Below are positions 21,572-39,137 of a DNA stretch of 64,000 nt, piece after piece. Position 1 is the first letter of the stretch; every line of letters begins with the position of its first letter. The position numbers and the translations under genes were made by a program. Under the pieces are notes generated by a model. It saw only the letters and a program-made list of their open reading frames with translations. It was not told the DNA's origin and did no database searches. This DNA comes from Octopus vulgaris (Eukaryota), in assembly GCA_951406725.2 (NCBI GenBank), contig OX597825.1:39742001-39806000 (forward strand). The letters run 5' to 3'.

Positions 21572-22094
21572 TTATATATATATATATATATATATTGTTA
21601 TATTTCGGAATGGTCATATTGCCAGTTTAGCCAATATATATATATATATGTATACTTATAATAAGAGTAGATCGTATACGAGTGGGTATATATTTGTAAT
21701 AAAGAAATTTGAAAACGCCACTATATTAGTTAAATTTTAATTTTCTTATGAATTTTACATGTTTCGGTTCTTGAAAAAACGAACCTTATCAAAAATATTA
21801 TAAAAGGTAAAGTGTAATAGCAAAGTTCATAATTGTTTCTTACTGGTCTCAATAGAATCCATGTGGTTGTGTTTTGTCGGTAGTAGGTATAATAGCTATA
21901 AATTTCAAGTTGAGTGTAGTAAAGAAGTTCATTATTGTTTCTGAAATGGTAGCAGCAGTAGTGATTGTTGGTCGTAGTAGTAGTAACCTTGGTGGTGGTT
22001 GGGGTTGCAGCAGCTTATTGGTTGGAGCGGCTAAGTTGTGGCAGTCCTAGCAGCAGCAGTATGACCAGTGGCTTAAATGGCAGTAGTAGCAGTT

Positions 22095-23762
22095 ATTGTA
22101 TCCCTAAAGTCCACAAAAACCAAATAATTGGTGAAACATGCAAAACATATTCCGATATGCTCTTCAGAATCCCTTCACCAAATTATCTTAAACTTAGACC
22201 GATAATAGCAGGCCCAGCATGTGAAACTCACCGCCTCAGCAATTTCTTAGACACACTTCTTAAACCTTTCCTAAAGCACATCAAAAGCTACGTAAGAAAC
22301 GATATAGACATGCTTAACCACCTCCCAAAAACAGTCAATGAGAAAACCCGTGTTGTATCCTTCGACGTATTTAACCTTTATTCAAACATCCCACACACCC
22401 TAGGAATAGAAGCGATCACTTTCTGGCTAAATAACTACTCCTTTGAACTCCAAACTCGCATAAATAAAGAACTTATAATAGAAGAACTTAGATTTATTTT
22501 AGAAAAAAATTACTTTATTTTTGACAATAATTTCTACAGACAAAGATCGGGAACAGCGATGGGCACGCGTACAGCGCCTTCTTTTGCCAACCTAGAGATG
22601 GGATACCTCGAGAAAATACTCTACCAGAAAACACTCGAGAAATATGGAAACACCTTCTCCACCTATTTCCAGAACACCTGGAAAAGATGCCTCGACGACT
22701 GCTTTATCCTCTGGGATAAAGGTATAGAGAAACTTGAGGAATTTAAAATACTATTAAATGGAATAAATGATAATATTCAGTTAACGATGGATCATAACGA
22801 AGAAGAATTGCCATTTTTAGACATCATCATTAAGAAAGCCGGCAACAAAATAGAGACAGGTATCTATTATAAACCGACAGACTCCAAGCAGTACCTACCC
22901 TTTGATTCATGCCACCCAAGACACACTAGAATAAATGTCCCTTTTTCTTTAGCTAGAAGGATTTGCACCATAATATCAGACACAAACACCCGACACACAC
23001 GTCTAGGGGGAACTTAGAACTACACTCCTAAATAGAAATTATCCACAGCCCCTAATAGACAGGGCAATCCAACGAGCACTTAAATTAAGTATAGAAGACC
23101 TAAGACGAACAAAACCAAAAAAGAAAGAAAAATTAAAAACCCTTCCCTACTTCTCTACACACAACCCACTTAACAATGAGGCCTTCAGCACCATACTACA
23201 AAGCACAGCCCTACTAAAGGGAGACCCAAAGATGAACCGGATCCTCGAAACACACACCTTCATTAAAAGTAAACGGCTACCAAAAACCTTGAAAATGATT
23301 TTAACCCAAGCTAAACTGCACTAAACATCAACCATAAAACCAGCAGTTAGAAAATGTGGAAAGCCCAACTGCGGAATCTGTGTCATCTTGGTAGAAGGTT
23401 CAGAATTCACATTAGAACAAGGCCATCAGTTTACCATTAGAACAAACTTCACCTGTGCATCAGAAAACTTAATTTACGTCTTAACATGCGCATGTTGCAA
23501 TAGGCAGTATATAGGCCATACAAAAAGCAGCTTACGTAAAAGGATGGCAGTGCATAAATACCAAATTAGAAACCCTGAATACCGGAAAATACCAGTCATC
23601 GGACACATAGATAGTTTCGCTTCAAATAAAAATCCGAAATTTACAGCTTGCCCACTTTACAAATTGAGTGACAGCGTAACCTTCACTCAACGCCAAAATA
23701 AAGAACTTTACTTCATTAACAAATTTAGACCAAGTTTGAACACCATGGGCCAGGAATATTAA
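22095..23762 (+). pseudogene. Penelope-type reverse transcriptase + GIY-YIG endonuclease
   Basis: YCIPKVHK, LRPII, SFDVFNLYSNIP, YRQRSGTAMG, WKRCLDDCF, FLDI, YYKPT, SCHP; CGKPNCGIC; NLIYVLTC..C..YIGHT..LRKRM..H; premature stops near 23015 and 23322. Confidence 0.93.
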
Positions 23763-31197: not shown

Positions 31198-31928
31198 GAG
31201 GGCATTATTACACATACATGCCACACGCTAAGAGGGACATTAGTCATTTCTACCAAAAAATTTTACTAATCATACCCAATGCAATTTTTCAAAGCAAGAC
31301 ATTTAAAAAATGAATTTAGTCTTGTATCACCTGTGATTTCGTACTTACCGCAGTTGCGACCGTACTCATCAGCAAGACTGATTCTGAACATATCATAAAT
31401 AAACGACCTCGCACCGTCAAAGCCGAACAGCTATCTGTTCTACTCTAACGAAGCACATGGGGAAGTTTACATATAATACATCCGGTAAATGGCAGGCTTC
31501 TTCGAATTGCATTTCGGATAGGAAAAGTTTTTTTGGAATATAATTATTTAACAATTAAGGATAACTTCTTAATAAGGAATCTTAACAAGAAATTATCAGG
31601 TAGATAGCGTGAAAAACCTCATAAGAGAAAACATTTCGAAAATAATTCTTTCTTATTGAACATATTACTTTATATATAGAGGGCATTATTACACATACAT
31701 GCCACACGCTAAGAGGGACATTAGTCATTTCTACCAAAAAATTTTACTAATCATACCCAATGCAATTTTTCAAAGCAAGACATTTAAAAAATGAATTTAG
31801 TCTTGTATCATCTGTGATTTCGTACTTACCGCAGTTGCGACCGTACTCATCAGCAAGACTGATTCATGCTATCTACCTGATAATTTCTTGTTAAGATTCC
31901 TTATTAAGAAGTTATCTGTAATTGTTAA

Positions 31929-31935
<7 letters not shown>
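31197..31935 (-). mobile_element. 481-bp hammerhead-containing tandem repeat (1.4 units) with a short terminal inversion, in (TA)n
   Basis: Direct repeat 31197/31678; 31864-31935 is the reverse complement of ~31541-31612. Confidence 0.9.
31318..31379 (-). ncRNA. Type I hammerhead ribozyme, 481-bp family (second copy 31799-31860)
   Basis: Minus strand: agtcttg CTGATGA gtac...gtac GAAA tca-cagg-tga TA caagact; 7-bp stem I, canonical core. Confidence 0.88.
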
Positions 31936-32000
<65 letters not shown>

Positions 32001-34750: not shown

Positions 34751-34796
<46 letters not shown>

Positions 34797-34798
<2 letters not shown>

Positions 34799-35612
34799 AT
34801 CACAACAGTTTGATACAAATTCATTGGTAATCTTGAGATTCAAACGCGATACTAGTCGTCAGCCATTGAGAATTTGAATTACTGAACTTGAATGTTATTA
34901 AGGTAAGATAGGGTGGAATTGGACTAGAAAGGTCGGAAATGGTGTCGTGGTTTGATGTTGGTATATGAGTAACAGGTAATTGGAAAACACAGCATGGCGA
35001 ACACGAAATTGACAAAGTGGAGAACAGGAAATAGATTAGAAGCCGGTCAGGTTGTTGGGGGAGTAGGACGGGGCGGCATATGCAAGTATATAGTTCTATA
35101 TTGTGGGTGTGCAGACGTGCCCGTATACTTTTGCATGCATGTATGCGAATATGCGAATGTACATATGAATGAATAAGCATGTGTGTATGAGCCTATGTAC
35201 GTACATGTGTGTATAAGCGTGTGTATGTGTGTGCAGACGCGCGTGTGCGTACAGATTCACACATGGGTATCAATATACACATGCACGAAAAATTATATTA
35301 GAGTCTGTGCACACCCAGATATATACTAGCAAATGCCCCCCTCCTACTTACATCCAACAACCTGACCGACTAATAGTCTATTTCTTGTCCACGTGGTCAA
35401 TATTCTGCTCTCTATGCATTATTTTCCAACTAACATTTACCCATTTACCAACATAAAACCACGATATCGCATAACCTTCCTCGACCAATCGCAGATCACC
35501 TTACGGTAATAATAATCAACTTCTGTCTTCGAAATTCGAAATAGCTGACGACTAGCATCACGCTTCCACCTACAGCGTACAATCGAAATTGAATCAAGCT
35601 GTTGTGATCCAT
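34797..35612. repeat. Diverged ~270-bp inverted repeat flanked by (TA)n
   Basis: Arms ~34797-35065 / ~35335-35612 (ggatcacaacag / ctgttgtgatcc; ggtcaggttgttgg / ccaacaacctgacc). Confidence 0.8.
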
Positions 35613-35665: not shown

Positions 35666-35718
<53 letters not shown>

Positions 35719-35721
<3 letters not shown>

Positions 35722-38700
35722 ATCAATATAGGGTGGCAAAAAAAAAATTTTGTAGAATTCTTTTGCCACCAGCGGCCTAGTGGGAAAAAATTAAATAGTC
35801 ATAAACCATTTTTAAGTTCAACATCACAATCAAGGAACGGCCATAATAGGCCATTCACCCACTAGAAATAACAGCCAAAAGCTTTAACCGCAAAATAACA
35901 TCAATTCCGTAAACCAGGAGAAAATTAAAAAACATTTACCCTGTAATTTCTTAGACGATGCACCGTTTCATCTACTGTTTAATGGTAAACTAACCTGATT
36001 AAATTAAATCAAGCCAATCTACCATAGGCCCTTAGATTCATCAGTAAGAAATAGCCAAGTCGGAACAGATATTTTTCACGAGGCATTCCCGTTGCTACCT
36101 CGGCAATATCTGACCTAAAATTTTCAAATCGTCGCACTCGCGCCAAATTTATCGGCAGCAAATAAATATAAGCCGCCGATTCCATTACGGAATTAACCAG
36201 AAAATTCATAATTAATCAATATAGGGTGGCAAAAAAAAAATTTGTAGAATTCTTTTGCCACCAGCGGCCTAGTGGGAAAAAATTAAATAGTCATAAACCA
36301 TTTTTAAGTTCAACATCACAATCAAGGAACGGCCATAATAGGCCATTCACCCACTAGAAATAACAGCCAAAAGCTTTAACCGCAAAATAACATCAATTCC
36401 GTAAACCAGGAGAAAATTAAAAAACATTTACCCTGTAATTTCTTAGACGATGCACCGTTTCATCTACTGTTTAATGGTAAACAAACCTGATTAAATTAAA
36501 TCAAGCCAATCTACCATAGGCCCTTAGATTCATCAGTAAGAAATAGCCAAGTCGGAACAGATATTTTTCACGAGGCATTCCCGTTGCTACCTCGGCAATA
36601 TCTGACCTAAAATTTTCAAATCGTCGCACTCGCGCCAAATTTATCGGCAGCAAATAAATATAAGCCGCCGATTCCATTACGGAATTAACCAGAAAATTCA
36701 TAATTAATCAATATAGGGTGGCAAAAAAAAAATTTTGTAGAATTCTTTTGCCACCAGCGGCCTAGTGGGAAAAAATTAAATAGTCATAAACCATTTTTAA
36801 GTTCAACATCACAATCAAGGAACGGCCATAATAGGCCATTCACCCACTAGAAATAACAGCCAAAAGCTTTAACCGCAAAATAACATCAATTCCGTAAACC
36901 AGGAGAAAATTAAAAAACATTTACCCTGTAATTTCTTAGACGATGCACCGTTTCATCTACTGTTTAATGGTAAACTAACCTGATTAAATTAAATCAAGCC
37001 AATCTACCATAGGCCCTTAGATTCATCAGTAAGAAATAGCCAAGTCGGAACAGATATTTTTCACGAGGCATTCCCGTTGCTACCTCGGCAATATCTGACC
37101 TAAAATTTTCAAATCGTCGCACTCGCGCCAAATTTATCGGCAGCAAATAAATATATGCCGCCGATTCCATTACGGAATTAACCAGGAAATTCATAATTAA
37201 TCAATATAGGGTGGCAAAAAAAAAAAAAAAATTTTGTAGAATTCTTTTGCCACCAGCGGCCTAGTGGGAAAAAAATTAAATAGTCATAAACAATTTTTAA
37301 GTTCAACATCACAATCAAGGAACGGCCATAATAGGCCATTCACCCACTAGAAATAACAGCCAAAAGCTTTAACCGCAAAATAACATCAATTCCGTAAACC
37401 AGGAGAAAATTAAAAAACAGTTACCCTGTAATTTCTTAGACGATGCACCGTTTCATCTACTGTTTAATGGTAAACTAACCTGATTAAATTAAATCAAGCC
37501 AATCTACCATAGGCCCTTAGATTCATCAGTAAGAAATAGCCAAGTCGGAACAGATATTTTTCACGAGGCATTCCCGTTGCTACCTCGGCAATATCTGACC
37601 TAAAATTTTCAAATCGTCGCACTCGCGCCAAATTTATCGGCAGCAAATAAATATAAGCCGCCGATTCCATTACGGAATTAACCAGAAAATTCATAATTAA
37701 TCAATATAGGGTGGCAAAAAAAAATTTTGTAGAATTCTTTTGCCACCAGCGGCCTAGTGGGAAAAAATTAAATAGTCATAAACCATTTTTAAGTTCAACA
37801 TCACAATCAAGGAACGCCCATAATAGGCCATTCACCCACTAGAAATAACAGCCAAAAGCTTTAACCGCAAAATAACATCAATTCCGTAAACCAGGAGAAA
37901 ATTAAAAAACATTTACCCTGTAATTTCTTAGACGATGCACCGTTTCATCTACTGTTTAATGGTAAACTAACCTGATTAAATTAAATCAAGCCAATCTACC
38001 ATAGGCCCATAGATTCATCAGTAAGAAATAGCCAAGTCGGAACAGATATTTTTCACGAGGCACTCCCGTTGCTACCTCGGCAATATCTGACGTAAAATTT
38101 TCAAATCGTCGCACTCGCACTATATTGATTAATTATGAATTTTCTGGTTAATTCCGTAATGGAATCGGCGGCTTATATTTATTTGCTGATGATAAATTTG
38201 GCGCGAGTGCGACGATTTGAAAATTTTAGGTCAGATATTGCCGAGGTAGCAACGGGAATGCCTCGTGAAAAATATCTGTTCCGACTTGGCTATTTCTTAC
38301 TGATGAATCTAAGGGCCTATGGTAGATTGGCTTGATTTAATTTAATCAGGTTAGTTTACCATTAAACAGTAGATGAAACGGTGCATCGTCTAAGAAATTA
38401 CAGGGTAAATGTTTTTTAATTTTCTCCTGGTTTATGGAATTGATGTTATTTTGCGGTTAAAGCTTTTGGCTGTTATTTCTAGTGGGTGAATGGCCTATTA
38501 TGGCCGTTCCTTGATTGTGATGTTGAACTTAAAAATGGTTTATGACTATTTAATTTTTTCCCACTAGGCCGCTGGTGGCAAAAGAATTCTACAAAATTTT
38601 TTTTTTGCCACCCTATATTGATTAATTATGAATTTTCTGGTTAATTCCGTAATGGAATCGGCGGCTTATATTTATTTGCTGCCGATAAATTTGGCGCGAG

Positions 38701-39013
38701 TGCGACGATTTGAAAATTTTAGGTCAGATATTGCCGAGGTAGCAACGGGAATGCCTCGCGAAAAATATCTGTTCCGACTTGGCTATTTCTTACTGATGAA
38801 TCTAAGGGCCTATGGTAGATTGGCTTGATTTAATTTAATCAGGTTAGTTTACCATTAAACAGTAGATGAAACGGTGCATCGTCTAAGAAATTACAGGGTA
38901 AATGTTTTTTAATTTTCTCCTGGTTTACGGAATTGATGTTATTTTGCGGTTAAAGCTTTTGGCTGTTATTTCTAGTGGGTGAATGGCCTATTATGGCCGT
39001 TCCTTGATTGTGA
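35719..39013. mobile_element. ~492-bp hammerhead-containing tandem array with internal inversion (retrozyme-like), flanked by (TA)n
   Basis: ~4.9 units ribozyme-minus (35719-38118), junction at 38119, ~1.8 units ribozyme-plus (38120-39013). Confidence 0.94.
38292..38398 (+). ncRNA. Type I hammerhead ribozyme, 492-bp family (also 38785-38891 on +; 35946-36052, 36438-36544, 36931-37037, 37431-37537, 37923-38029 on -)
   Basis: atttctta CTGATGA atcta[58-nt hairpin insert]tagat GAAA cgg-tgca-tcg TC taagaaat: perfect 8-bp stem I, canonical core, GUC. Confidence 0.93.
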
Positions 39014-39053
39014 TATATATATACATATATACACACATATATACATATACACA

Positions 39054-39137
<84 letters not shown>

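Follow-up and report, generated by a model that had tools for sequence, protein, structure and literature searches.

The 492-bp tandem repeat in this region of the Octopus vulgaris genome belongs to a young family of non-LTR retrozymes, most examined copies of which stand in (AT)n tracts as two divergent arms with fixed outer ends. The best reading of this anatomy is a non-autonomous element that was probably moved by an enzyme of the Penelope-like elements (PLEs), priming twice on self-cleaved linear and circular RNA. The window analysed is a stretch of 64,000 nucleotides of contig OX597825.1, in which the array spans positions 35719-39014 with a period of 492-500, is flanked by two microsatellites and carries 7 hammerheads (Table 1). 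The unit is non-coding: the longest ATG frame has 66 codons on the ribozyme strand and 11 on the opposite strand, and neither a reverse transcriptase (RT) nor a GIY-YIG open reading frame was found in its 492 nt. An overlap of 13-16 nt at the window locus suggested a DNA inversion of one array, which was ruled out because both ends are fixed genome-wide.

Table 1. Features of the retrozyme array, in window coordinates (circle positions are counted from the hammerhead cleavage site)
Feature	Position	Strand	Remark
(AT)n target, left side	35669..35718		(AT)n adjoins nearly all loci examined
Arm B, 4.9 head-to-tail units	35719..38118	-	RNA-sense 3' end fixed at circle position ~235-239; 5' end at centre
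Arm B hammerhead 5	35946..36052	-	
Arm B hammerhead 4	36438..36544	-	
Arm B hammerhead 3	36931..37037	-	
Arm B hammerhead 2	37431..37537	-	
Arm B hammerhead 1	37923..38029	-	
Head-to-head junction of both arms, variable 5' ends	38118..38120		
Arm A, 1.8 units	38120..39014	+	RNA-sense 3' end fixed at circle position 131
Type I hammerhead, predicted cut after 38390 (GUC)	38292..38398	+	
19-bp hairpin, five G-U pairs	38319..38362	+	prolongs stem II past an internal loop
One monomer, cut to cut, 493 nt	38391..38883	+	predicted linear/circular RNA
108-nt 'tail' between putative priming sites A (38521) and B (38629)	38522..38629	+	contains strong GGUGGC...GCCACC hairpin
Arm A second hammerhead, cut after 38883	38785..38891	+	
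(AT)n/(AC)n target, right side	39015..39123		

The first-pass annotation had described a canonical hammerhead with an 8-bp stem I and GUC, and this is what the array contains. Its remaining parts, as read from the sequence and the consensus fold, are CUGAUGA, a 5-bp stem II, GAAA and a 4-bp stem III with a UGCA loop, stem I being the open helix. A search of the hammerhead against Rfam gave 0 matches at the gathering score, probably owing to the long insert in stem II. The proposed hairpin of about 19 bp that depends on G-U pairs was recovered at its full 19 pairs, with an end 1 nt short of the one claimed; its folding energy is −22.2 kcal/mol (z −7.5) for the ribozyme strand, compared with −7.0 (z −3.3) for the opposite one. 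The three other hairpins named for the unit are all present in the window copy, though one subfamily has lost the outer pairs of cgaggta/tgcctcg, and the alignment fold shows a different pairing in place of atcggcggc/gctgccgat.

Folding the unit as a circle bears out that it is strongly structured and that the ribozyme strand folds better: all five complete monomers gave −143.6 to −148.0 kcal/mol on this strand versus −93.5 to −99.4 on the other, an advantage of about 50 kcal/mol, with 60-66% of bases paired. The hammerhead occurs on one polarity only. The consensus fold of 31 aligned monomers (the window copy and 30 of 50 non-redundant monomers) is the active hammerhead form, at −116 kcal/mol versus −63 for the other strand. 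The gap between strands, however, mostly follows from the 59% G+U content of the ribozyme strand, since shuffled strands are already 37 of 53 kcal/mol apart (−111.5 vs −74.1). The fold z-scores of the ribozyme and opposite strands are −5.3 vs −3.6 with G-U pairs and −3.9 vs −4.6 without them. The asymmetry alone thus shows skew, not selection.

Sequence variation across copies gives good support for selection on the RNA in the ribozyme and moderate support in the rest of the unit. Hammerhead core position 7 is free (U69/C14/G14/A5) and position 17 is C in 61 and A in 46 loci, the H of NUH being C or A in 107/107, while the other 11 scored core positions have at most one exception each (102-107 loci scored for position 7 and for these 11). 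Both sides have changed in 5 of 136 pairs among the 31 monomers, four of these pairs lying in stems I and II. The compensatory pairs are A-U in 19 and G-C in 12 sequences in stem I, and A-U in 15 and G-C in 14 in stem II, while two further pairs change in a single sequence; these counts use a fold derived from the same alignment and so lean towards it, and the shuffles for covariation ignore relatedness, so that the changes amount to a few events among related sequences, not 29. In 30 of 31 sequences loop III is a palindrome, either UGCA (20) or UAUA (10). Inherited variants are depleted at paired sites (54/156, versus 160/309 for single-copy variants; p = 5e-4).

The conclusion of the first-pass annotation, that RNA structure has been selected, therefore stands on the invariance of the core, compensation in stems I and II and the depletion at paired sites, whereas its argument from wobble pairs is weak. 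The G-U share among pairs is 18%, against 20 ± 3% in shuffles, and was discarded as proof of selection; the ratio of G-U to A-C among variants (inherited 14:11, single-copy 26:46, p = 0.10) is a trend only. Covariation across genomic copies is likewise found in stems I and II and is nearly absent outside the ribozyme: the 19-bp hairpin is conserved but without compensatory change, one of its positions being paired in only 8 of 31 sequences. A candidate compensatory pair in this hairpin (circle positions 426/461) was rejected, as its two changes belong to separate lineages and result in A-A or U-U.

The genome (2.8 Gb, 227 contigs) contains 1,329 candidate copies of the 492-nt retrozyme, 40 of them scored, dispersed over many loci and without an LTR arrangement. 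All the features of non-LTR retrozymes that can be tested in sequence are present, namely tandem type I hammerhead units, lack of coding capacity, lack of an LTR arrangement and a self-paired predicted circle. Variants of the unit also occur in contigs of four sequencing runs (organisms A-D, with relatives in B-D; four of 23 listed runs, none of them marked as RNA); the contigs that join the A end to (AT)n in one run guessed to be RNA fit DNA or read-through. We examined 140 loci: the 40 best-scoring ones, including the window; 60 A-anchored loci on two contigs, picked in the order of the list of 410 exact genome matches of the A end plus (AT)n; and 40 B-anchored loci on one contig, from B-end matches outside the other sets (610 forward rows, the reverse rows repeating the same sites). 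Fifteen short stretches of a diverged subfamily were added to the 140 loci.

Two divergent arms within (AT)n, with ends about 131 (A) and about 239 nt (B) past the cleavage site, make up 107 of the 140 loci, and the full form is absent in the other 33. One A-ended and one B-ended arm were found in 36/40 best-scoring, 46/60 A-anchored and 25/40 B-anchored loci, and an A+A or B+B combination in 0/140. Where an A-anchored locus has an opposite arm, this arm ends at 229-244 in 46 of 50 cases. Either arm may be the longer, and arm length ranges from 0.05 to 11 units. Any target-site duplication is masked by the (AT)n on both sides. In 40 loci, divergence is 0.62% between the arms of one locus and 0.51% between copies within an arm, versus 1.63% between loci. 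The 41 loci with at least three copies carry 33 haplotypes, and 9 of them have a locus-unique allele that is fixed in every copy (3-8 copies), indicating that arrays were rebuilt from single monomers through a bottleneck followed by multimerisation.

In the mechanism that we regard as probable, the ribozyme strand of an array would be transcribed and cut by its hammerheads into monomers of about 492 nt, as selection on the ribozyme and the stop sites described below suggest, and some monomers would be ligated into circles, by analogy with related retrozymes. A PLE protein with RT and GIY-YIG domains would nick both strands of an (AT)n tract, the target seen at the insertions. Each DNA end would then prime at its own internal RNA site, 131 or 239 nt past the cut, with 2-6 nt of AT microhomology, which would place the ends where they are observed. 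On a linear monomer both cDNAs would run off the 5' end made by the ribozyme; on a circle they would read through for up to 11 laps, and the two cDNA ends would be joined head to head, in most cases with an overlap or filler of a few bases. Selection would act on RNA structure because new insertions arise only from monomers that fold and can be cleaved. Among the points that speak against this reading, which remains the best one, are the tail of 108 nt, not 30-40 nt as described for PLEs, the loci without the full two-arm form (33 of 140) and the behaviour of the anole PLE described below.

Which templates were copied can be judged from where arms stop. Of 196 passages in the 100 pattern-anchored loci, 35 show an arm stop at most 26 nt inside the cut, whereas elsewhere the figure is 139 of 2865 (p = 3e-10). 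The excess lies at the first junction (30/130) and not at later ones (5/66, near background, p = 0.22), whereas a purely structural pause should act alike on every lap. The 40 best-scoring loci, which were chosen for full units, show no significant excess overall (7/184, p = 0.19); their stops fall at the second and third junctions (7/112, p = 0.012 versus background), which fits linear dimers and trimers as templates. These later stops, with the general excess at the cut, would also be expected if the same enzyme primed twice on linear templates only, that is, on cut monomers and on incompletely cut multimers transcribed from existing arrays, with no circle involved. Variants that recur along an array could then have been copied from source arrays. 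We consider this unlikely: the fixed locus-unique alleles in 9 of 41 arrays and the 33 haplotypes need repeated steps from monomer to multimer, although template jumping between linear monomers could still provide them, and in the pattern-anchored set the later junctions are read through at near background.

The variants in question are private variants that form period-2, period-3 and period-4 patterns along the arrays L063, L034 and L060. They fit later duplication as well as multimeric circles, and as proof of such circles they were rejected, L063 being better explained by nested duplications.

Among 72 arm pairs, 13 have both stops near the cut. Of the 52 pairs without a near-cut stop, 15 have arms whose 5' ends coincide to within 12 nt, where 3.0 such pairs would be expected, as though a single broken molecule had served both arms. 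Such pairs could also arise from a single priming followed by fold-back, in which one cDNA, or a self-primed antisense RNA of the kind proposed for PLEs (PMC3846280), serves as its own template and trimming of the second end by the endonuclease leaves the tail; in 11 of the 15, the length difference is 98-123 nt, equivalent to a palindromic centre. This explanation is improbable, because the other 37 pairs do not share a 5' end, because arm A frequently exceeds arm B in length by far (in L034, 7.9 vs 1.5 units), which is impossible by fold-back from B, and because stops accumulate at a cut that is present on the ribozyme strand only. Five independent insertions (L042, L061, L049, L110 and L124) have the same central junction at circle position 297, which suggests a sequence-favoured stop or join.

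Two further alternatives are less likely still. A satellite DNA that unequal crossing over and inversion have spread, with hammerhead and fold as relics or by-products of G+T skew, would agree with the mostly compositional strand gap, the scarcity of covariation beyond the ribozyme and the local duplication in some arrays, but it is highly improbable given the two fixed ends in (AT)n at hundreds of short loci dispersed in the genome, a core that is invariant around a free position 7 and inherited variants that avoid paired sites. An endogenised viroid-like RNA that replicates from RNA to RNA and is occasionally captured as DNA would resemble the unit in size, fold and hammerhead and would have lineages under RNA-level constraint, yet it is scarcely credible when the hammerhead occupies one polarity, all copies seen, with over a thousand DNA candidates, are PLE-type insertions, and ongoing insertion explains the lineages. 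The earlier suggestion of viroid-like or retrozyme circles thus holds for a retrozyme and is not supported for a viroid-like replicon, every copy seen being a DNA insertion with the anatomy of a retrotransposon.

For two primings by a PLE enzyme, the genome offers a candidate protein. A very young Neptune-type PLE (L115:300-3304, L182-L190) has a 4,270-bp unit with three overlapping frames (223, 266 and 775 codons) and encodes RT and GIY-YIG domains with a CxxC linker. Of its 150 scored copies, about 148 reach the top score, and every one is listed with 100% amino-acid identity across 250 residues. By eye, it carries a hammerhead-like motif with a CCGAAGA core in place of CUGANGA. Eight of its loci, picked for opposite-strand pairs, have divergent arms in (AT)n; the five that were resolved end about 140 and about 175-189 nt past the motif, while in the other three the alignments ran into AT. 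The retrozyme has no sequence likeness to this element in the one PLE unit compared (best E 1.2). Another young RT-like family (L067:5536-6953) is present, with 34 of 150 scored copies, those listed first, at the top score and 100% amino-acid identity; it has no informative Pfam match and only a weak match to the L115 protein, and its motifs look Naiad-like. With no shared sequence and this second family in the genome, the Neptune-type element is only a candidate for the enzyme. The window itself holds a PLE-type RT/endonuclease remnant at 22085-23741 (+) in two frames, which are 50% and 35% identical to the L115 protein.

A second retrozyme family lies in the window at 31200-31936 (-), with a 481-nt unit, two hammerheads (cores 31853 and 31372; GUA cut), a 68-nt inverted arm and (AT)n on both sides; it has 1,764 candidates in the genome and no sequence likeness to the 492-nt retrozyme. 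Its ends are likewise fixed at two points, about 125-137 and 268 nt beyond the cut, and its ribozyme strand folds at −125 kcal/mol vs −93 for the other. In the Neptune-type element, as in both of these unrelated retrozyme families, the first site is thus found about 125-140 nt beyond the cut, and this distance hints at a common spacing rule by which the RT is loaded without sequence homology. It is an evenly balanced judgement, in our view, that the genome records two primings by a PLE RT on one RNA processed by the ribozyme, once from either end of a cut (AT)n tract and at fixed RNA sites that lie 108 nt apart, by run-off on linear and by rolling circle on ligated monomers. If true, this would be insertion-level evidence for the link between PLEs and retrozymes, for hammerhead cleavage in vivo within the PLE cycle and for a sense-strand template.

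The element is of a known kind, and its insertion record, with the two-armed fixed-end anatomy, is the new part. With the metazoan non-LTR retrozymes in the accessible text of Cervera and de la Pena (2020; PMC7229834), it shares tandem non-coding type I hammerhead units, a low GC content, a circle that pairs with itself and leaves the ribozyme free to fold, and co-occurrence with PLEs; mobilisation by PLEs on a circle was proposed there. The present family differs in unit size (492 nt versus 150-450 bp), in the 19-bp hairpin added to stem II and in its two divergent fixed-end arms in (AT)n, the words 'inverted' and 'microsatellite' occurring 0 times in that text; expression was demonstrated for those retrozymes, whereas this one is known from DNA. 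A preprint by Li, Clavereau and Pollet (2026; 10.64898/2026.07.22.740005), in the portion available, treats animal retrozymes as non-autonomous PLE derivatives with units of 51-972 bp, on the evidence of co-occurrence and pLTR homology, and has arrays grow by unequal crossover. In that portion 'tail', 'orientation' and 'priming' occur 0 times; here, the one PLE unit compared gives no pLTR homology, and there is PLE-like anatomy instead.

Inverted copies, tails and a (TA)n bias are described as hallmarks of PLEs in the sections consulted of PMC8557442. Work on a PLE protein has shown nicking of both strands in AT-rich DNA and initiation at two sites inside the RNA (PMC11167929); for the anole PLE, initiation takes place without homology to the DNA that is cut, and ribozyme cleavage is dispensable in vitro (PMC11167929). 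As far as the sources at hand describe them, EN+ PLEs (Neptune/Naiad, PMC8557442; Poseidon PAc, PMC11167929; rotifer Penelope, PMC3846280) share with the retrozyme an inverted 5'-truncated head-to-head copy, a tail at one end, (TA)n targets and two internal RT starts downstream of a hammerhead. Unlike them, it has no ORF, a tail of 108 nt, many laps of a short unit and a visible footprint of ribozyme cleavage at its arm ends. It is not a PLE, yet it inserts like one. In L1 twin priming, two target-primed cDNAs are joined head to head by microhomology; here, in contrast, the two-arm form is the usual outcome, both starts are fixed and there is no poly(A).

Related observations have been recorded in the partly available literature: minimal hammerhead pairs on opposite strands in schistosomes, ascribed to truncated PLEs (PMC4209133), non-autonomous elements with head-to-tail insertions in Chlamys (PMC8557442), and the lack of any motif in animal retrozymes that would reveal their partner (PMC7761336). 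Two-armed, fixed-end retrozyme insertions were not found described in the literature searched, with supplements and subscription papers outside its scope. The enzyme that moves animal retrozymes, the circle as a template and the origin of the inverted arms and tails of PLEs are named as open questions in the accessible parts of PMC7229834, PMC7761336, PMC8557442 and PMC11167929. For the present family the predictions are exact: the substrate should have 492 nt, the target should be (AT)n and synthesis should start at 131 and 239. With a very young candidate enzyme encoded in the genome as well, the PLE-retrozyme model becomes directly testable in vitro. It also provides a simple anatomical test for the retrozymes of other animals, and its insertion footprint points to how self-cutting RNAs are copied into DNA.

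Two further families of type I hammerheads stand near (AT)n with stem II arms of about 55-70 nt (L043:4699, L044:4564, L045:1364 and L116:3963; L050:7669, L057:1740 and L080:2004), and long stem II arms seem common in this genome. Left of the array, between (TA)n tracts at window positions 34795-35612, lies an older two-armed palindrome with arms 67% identical and with relatives in L073, L079 and L132, which is probably a decayed insertion of like anatomy.
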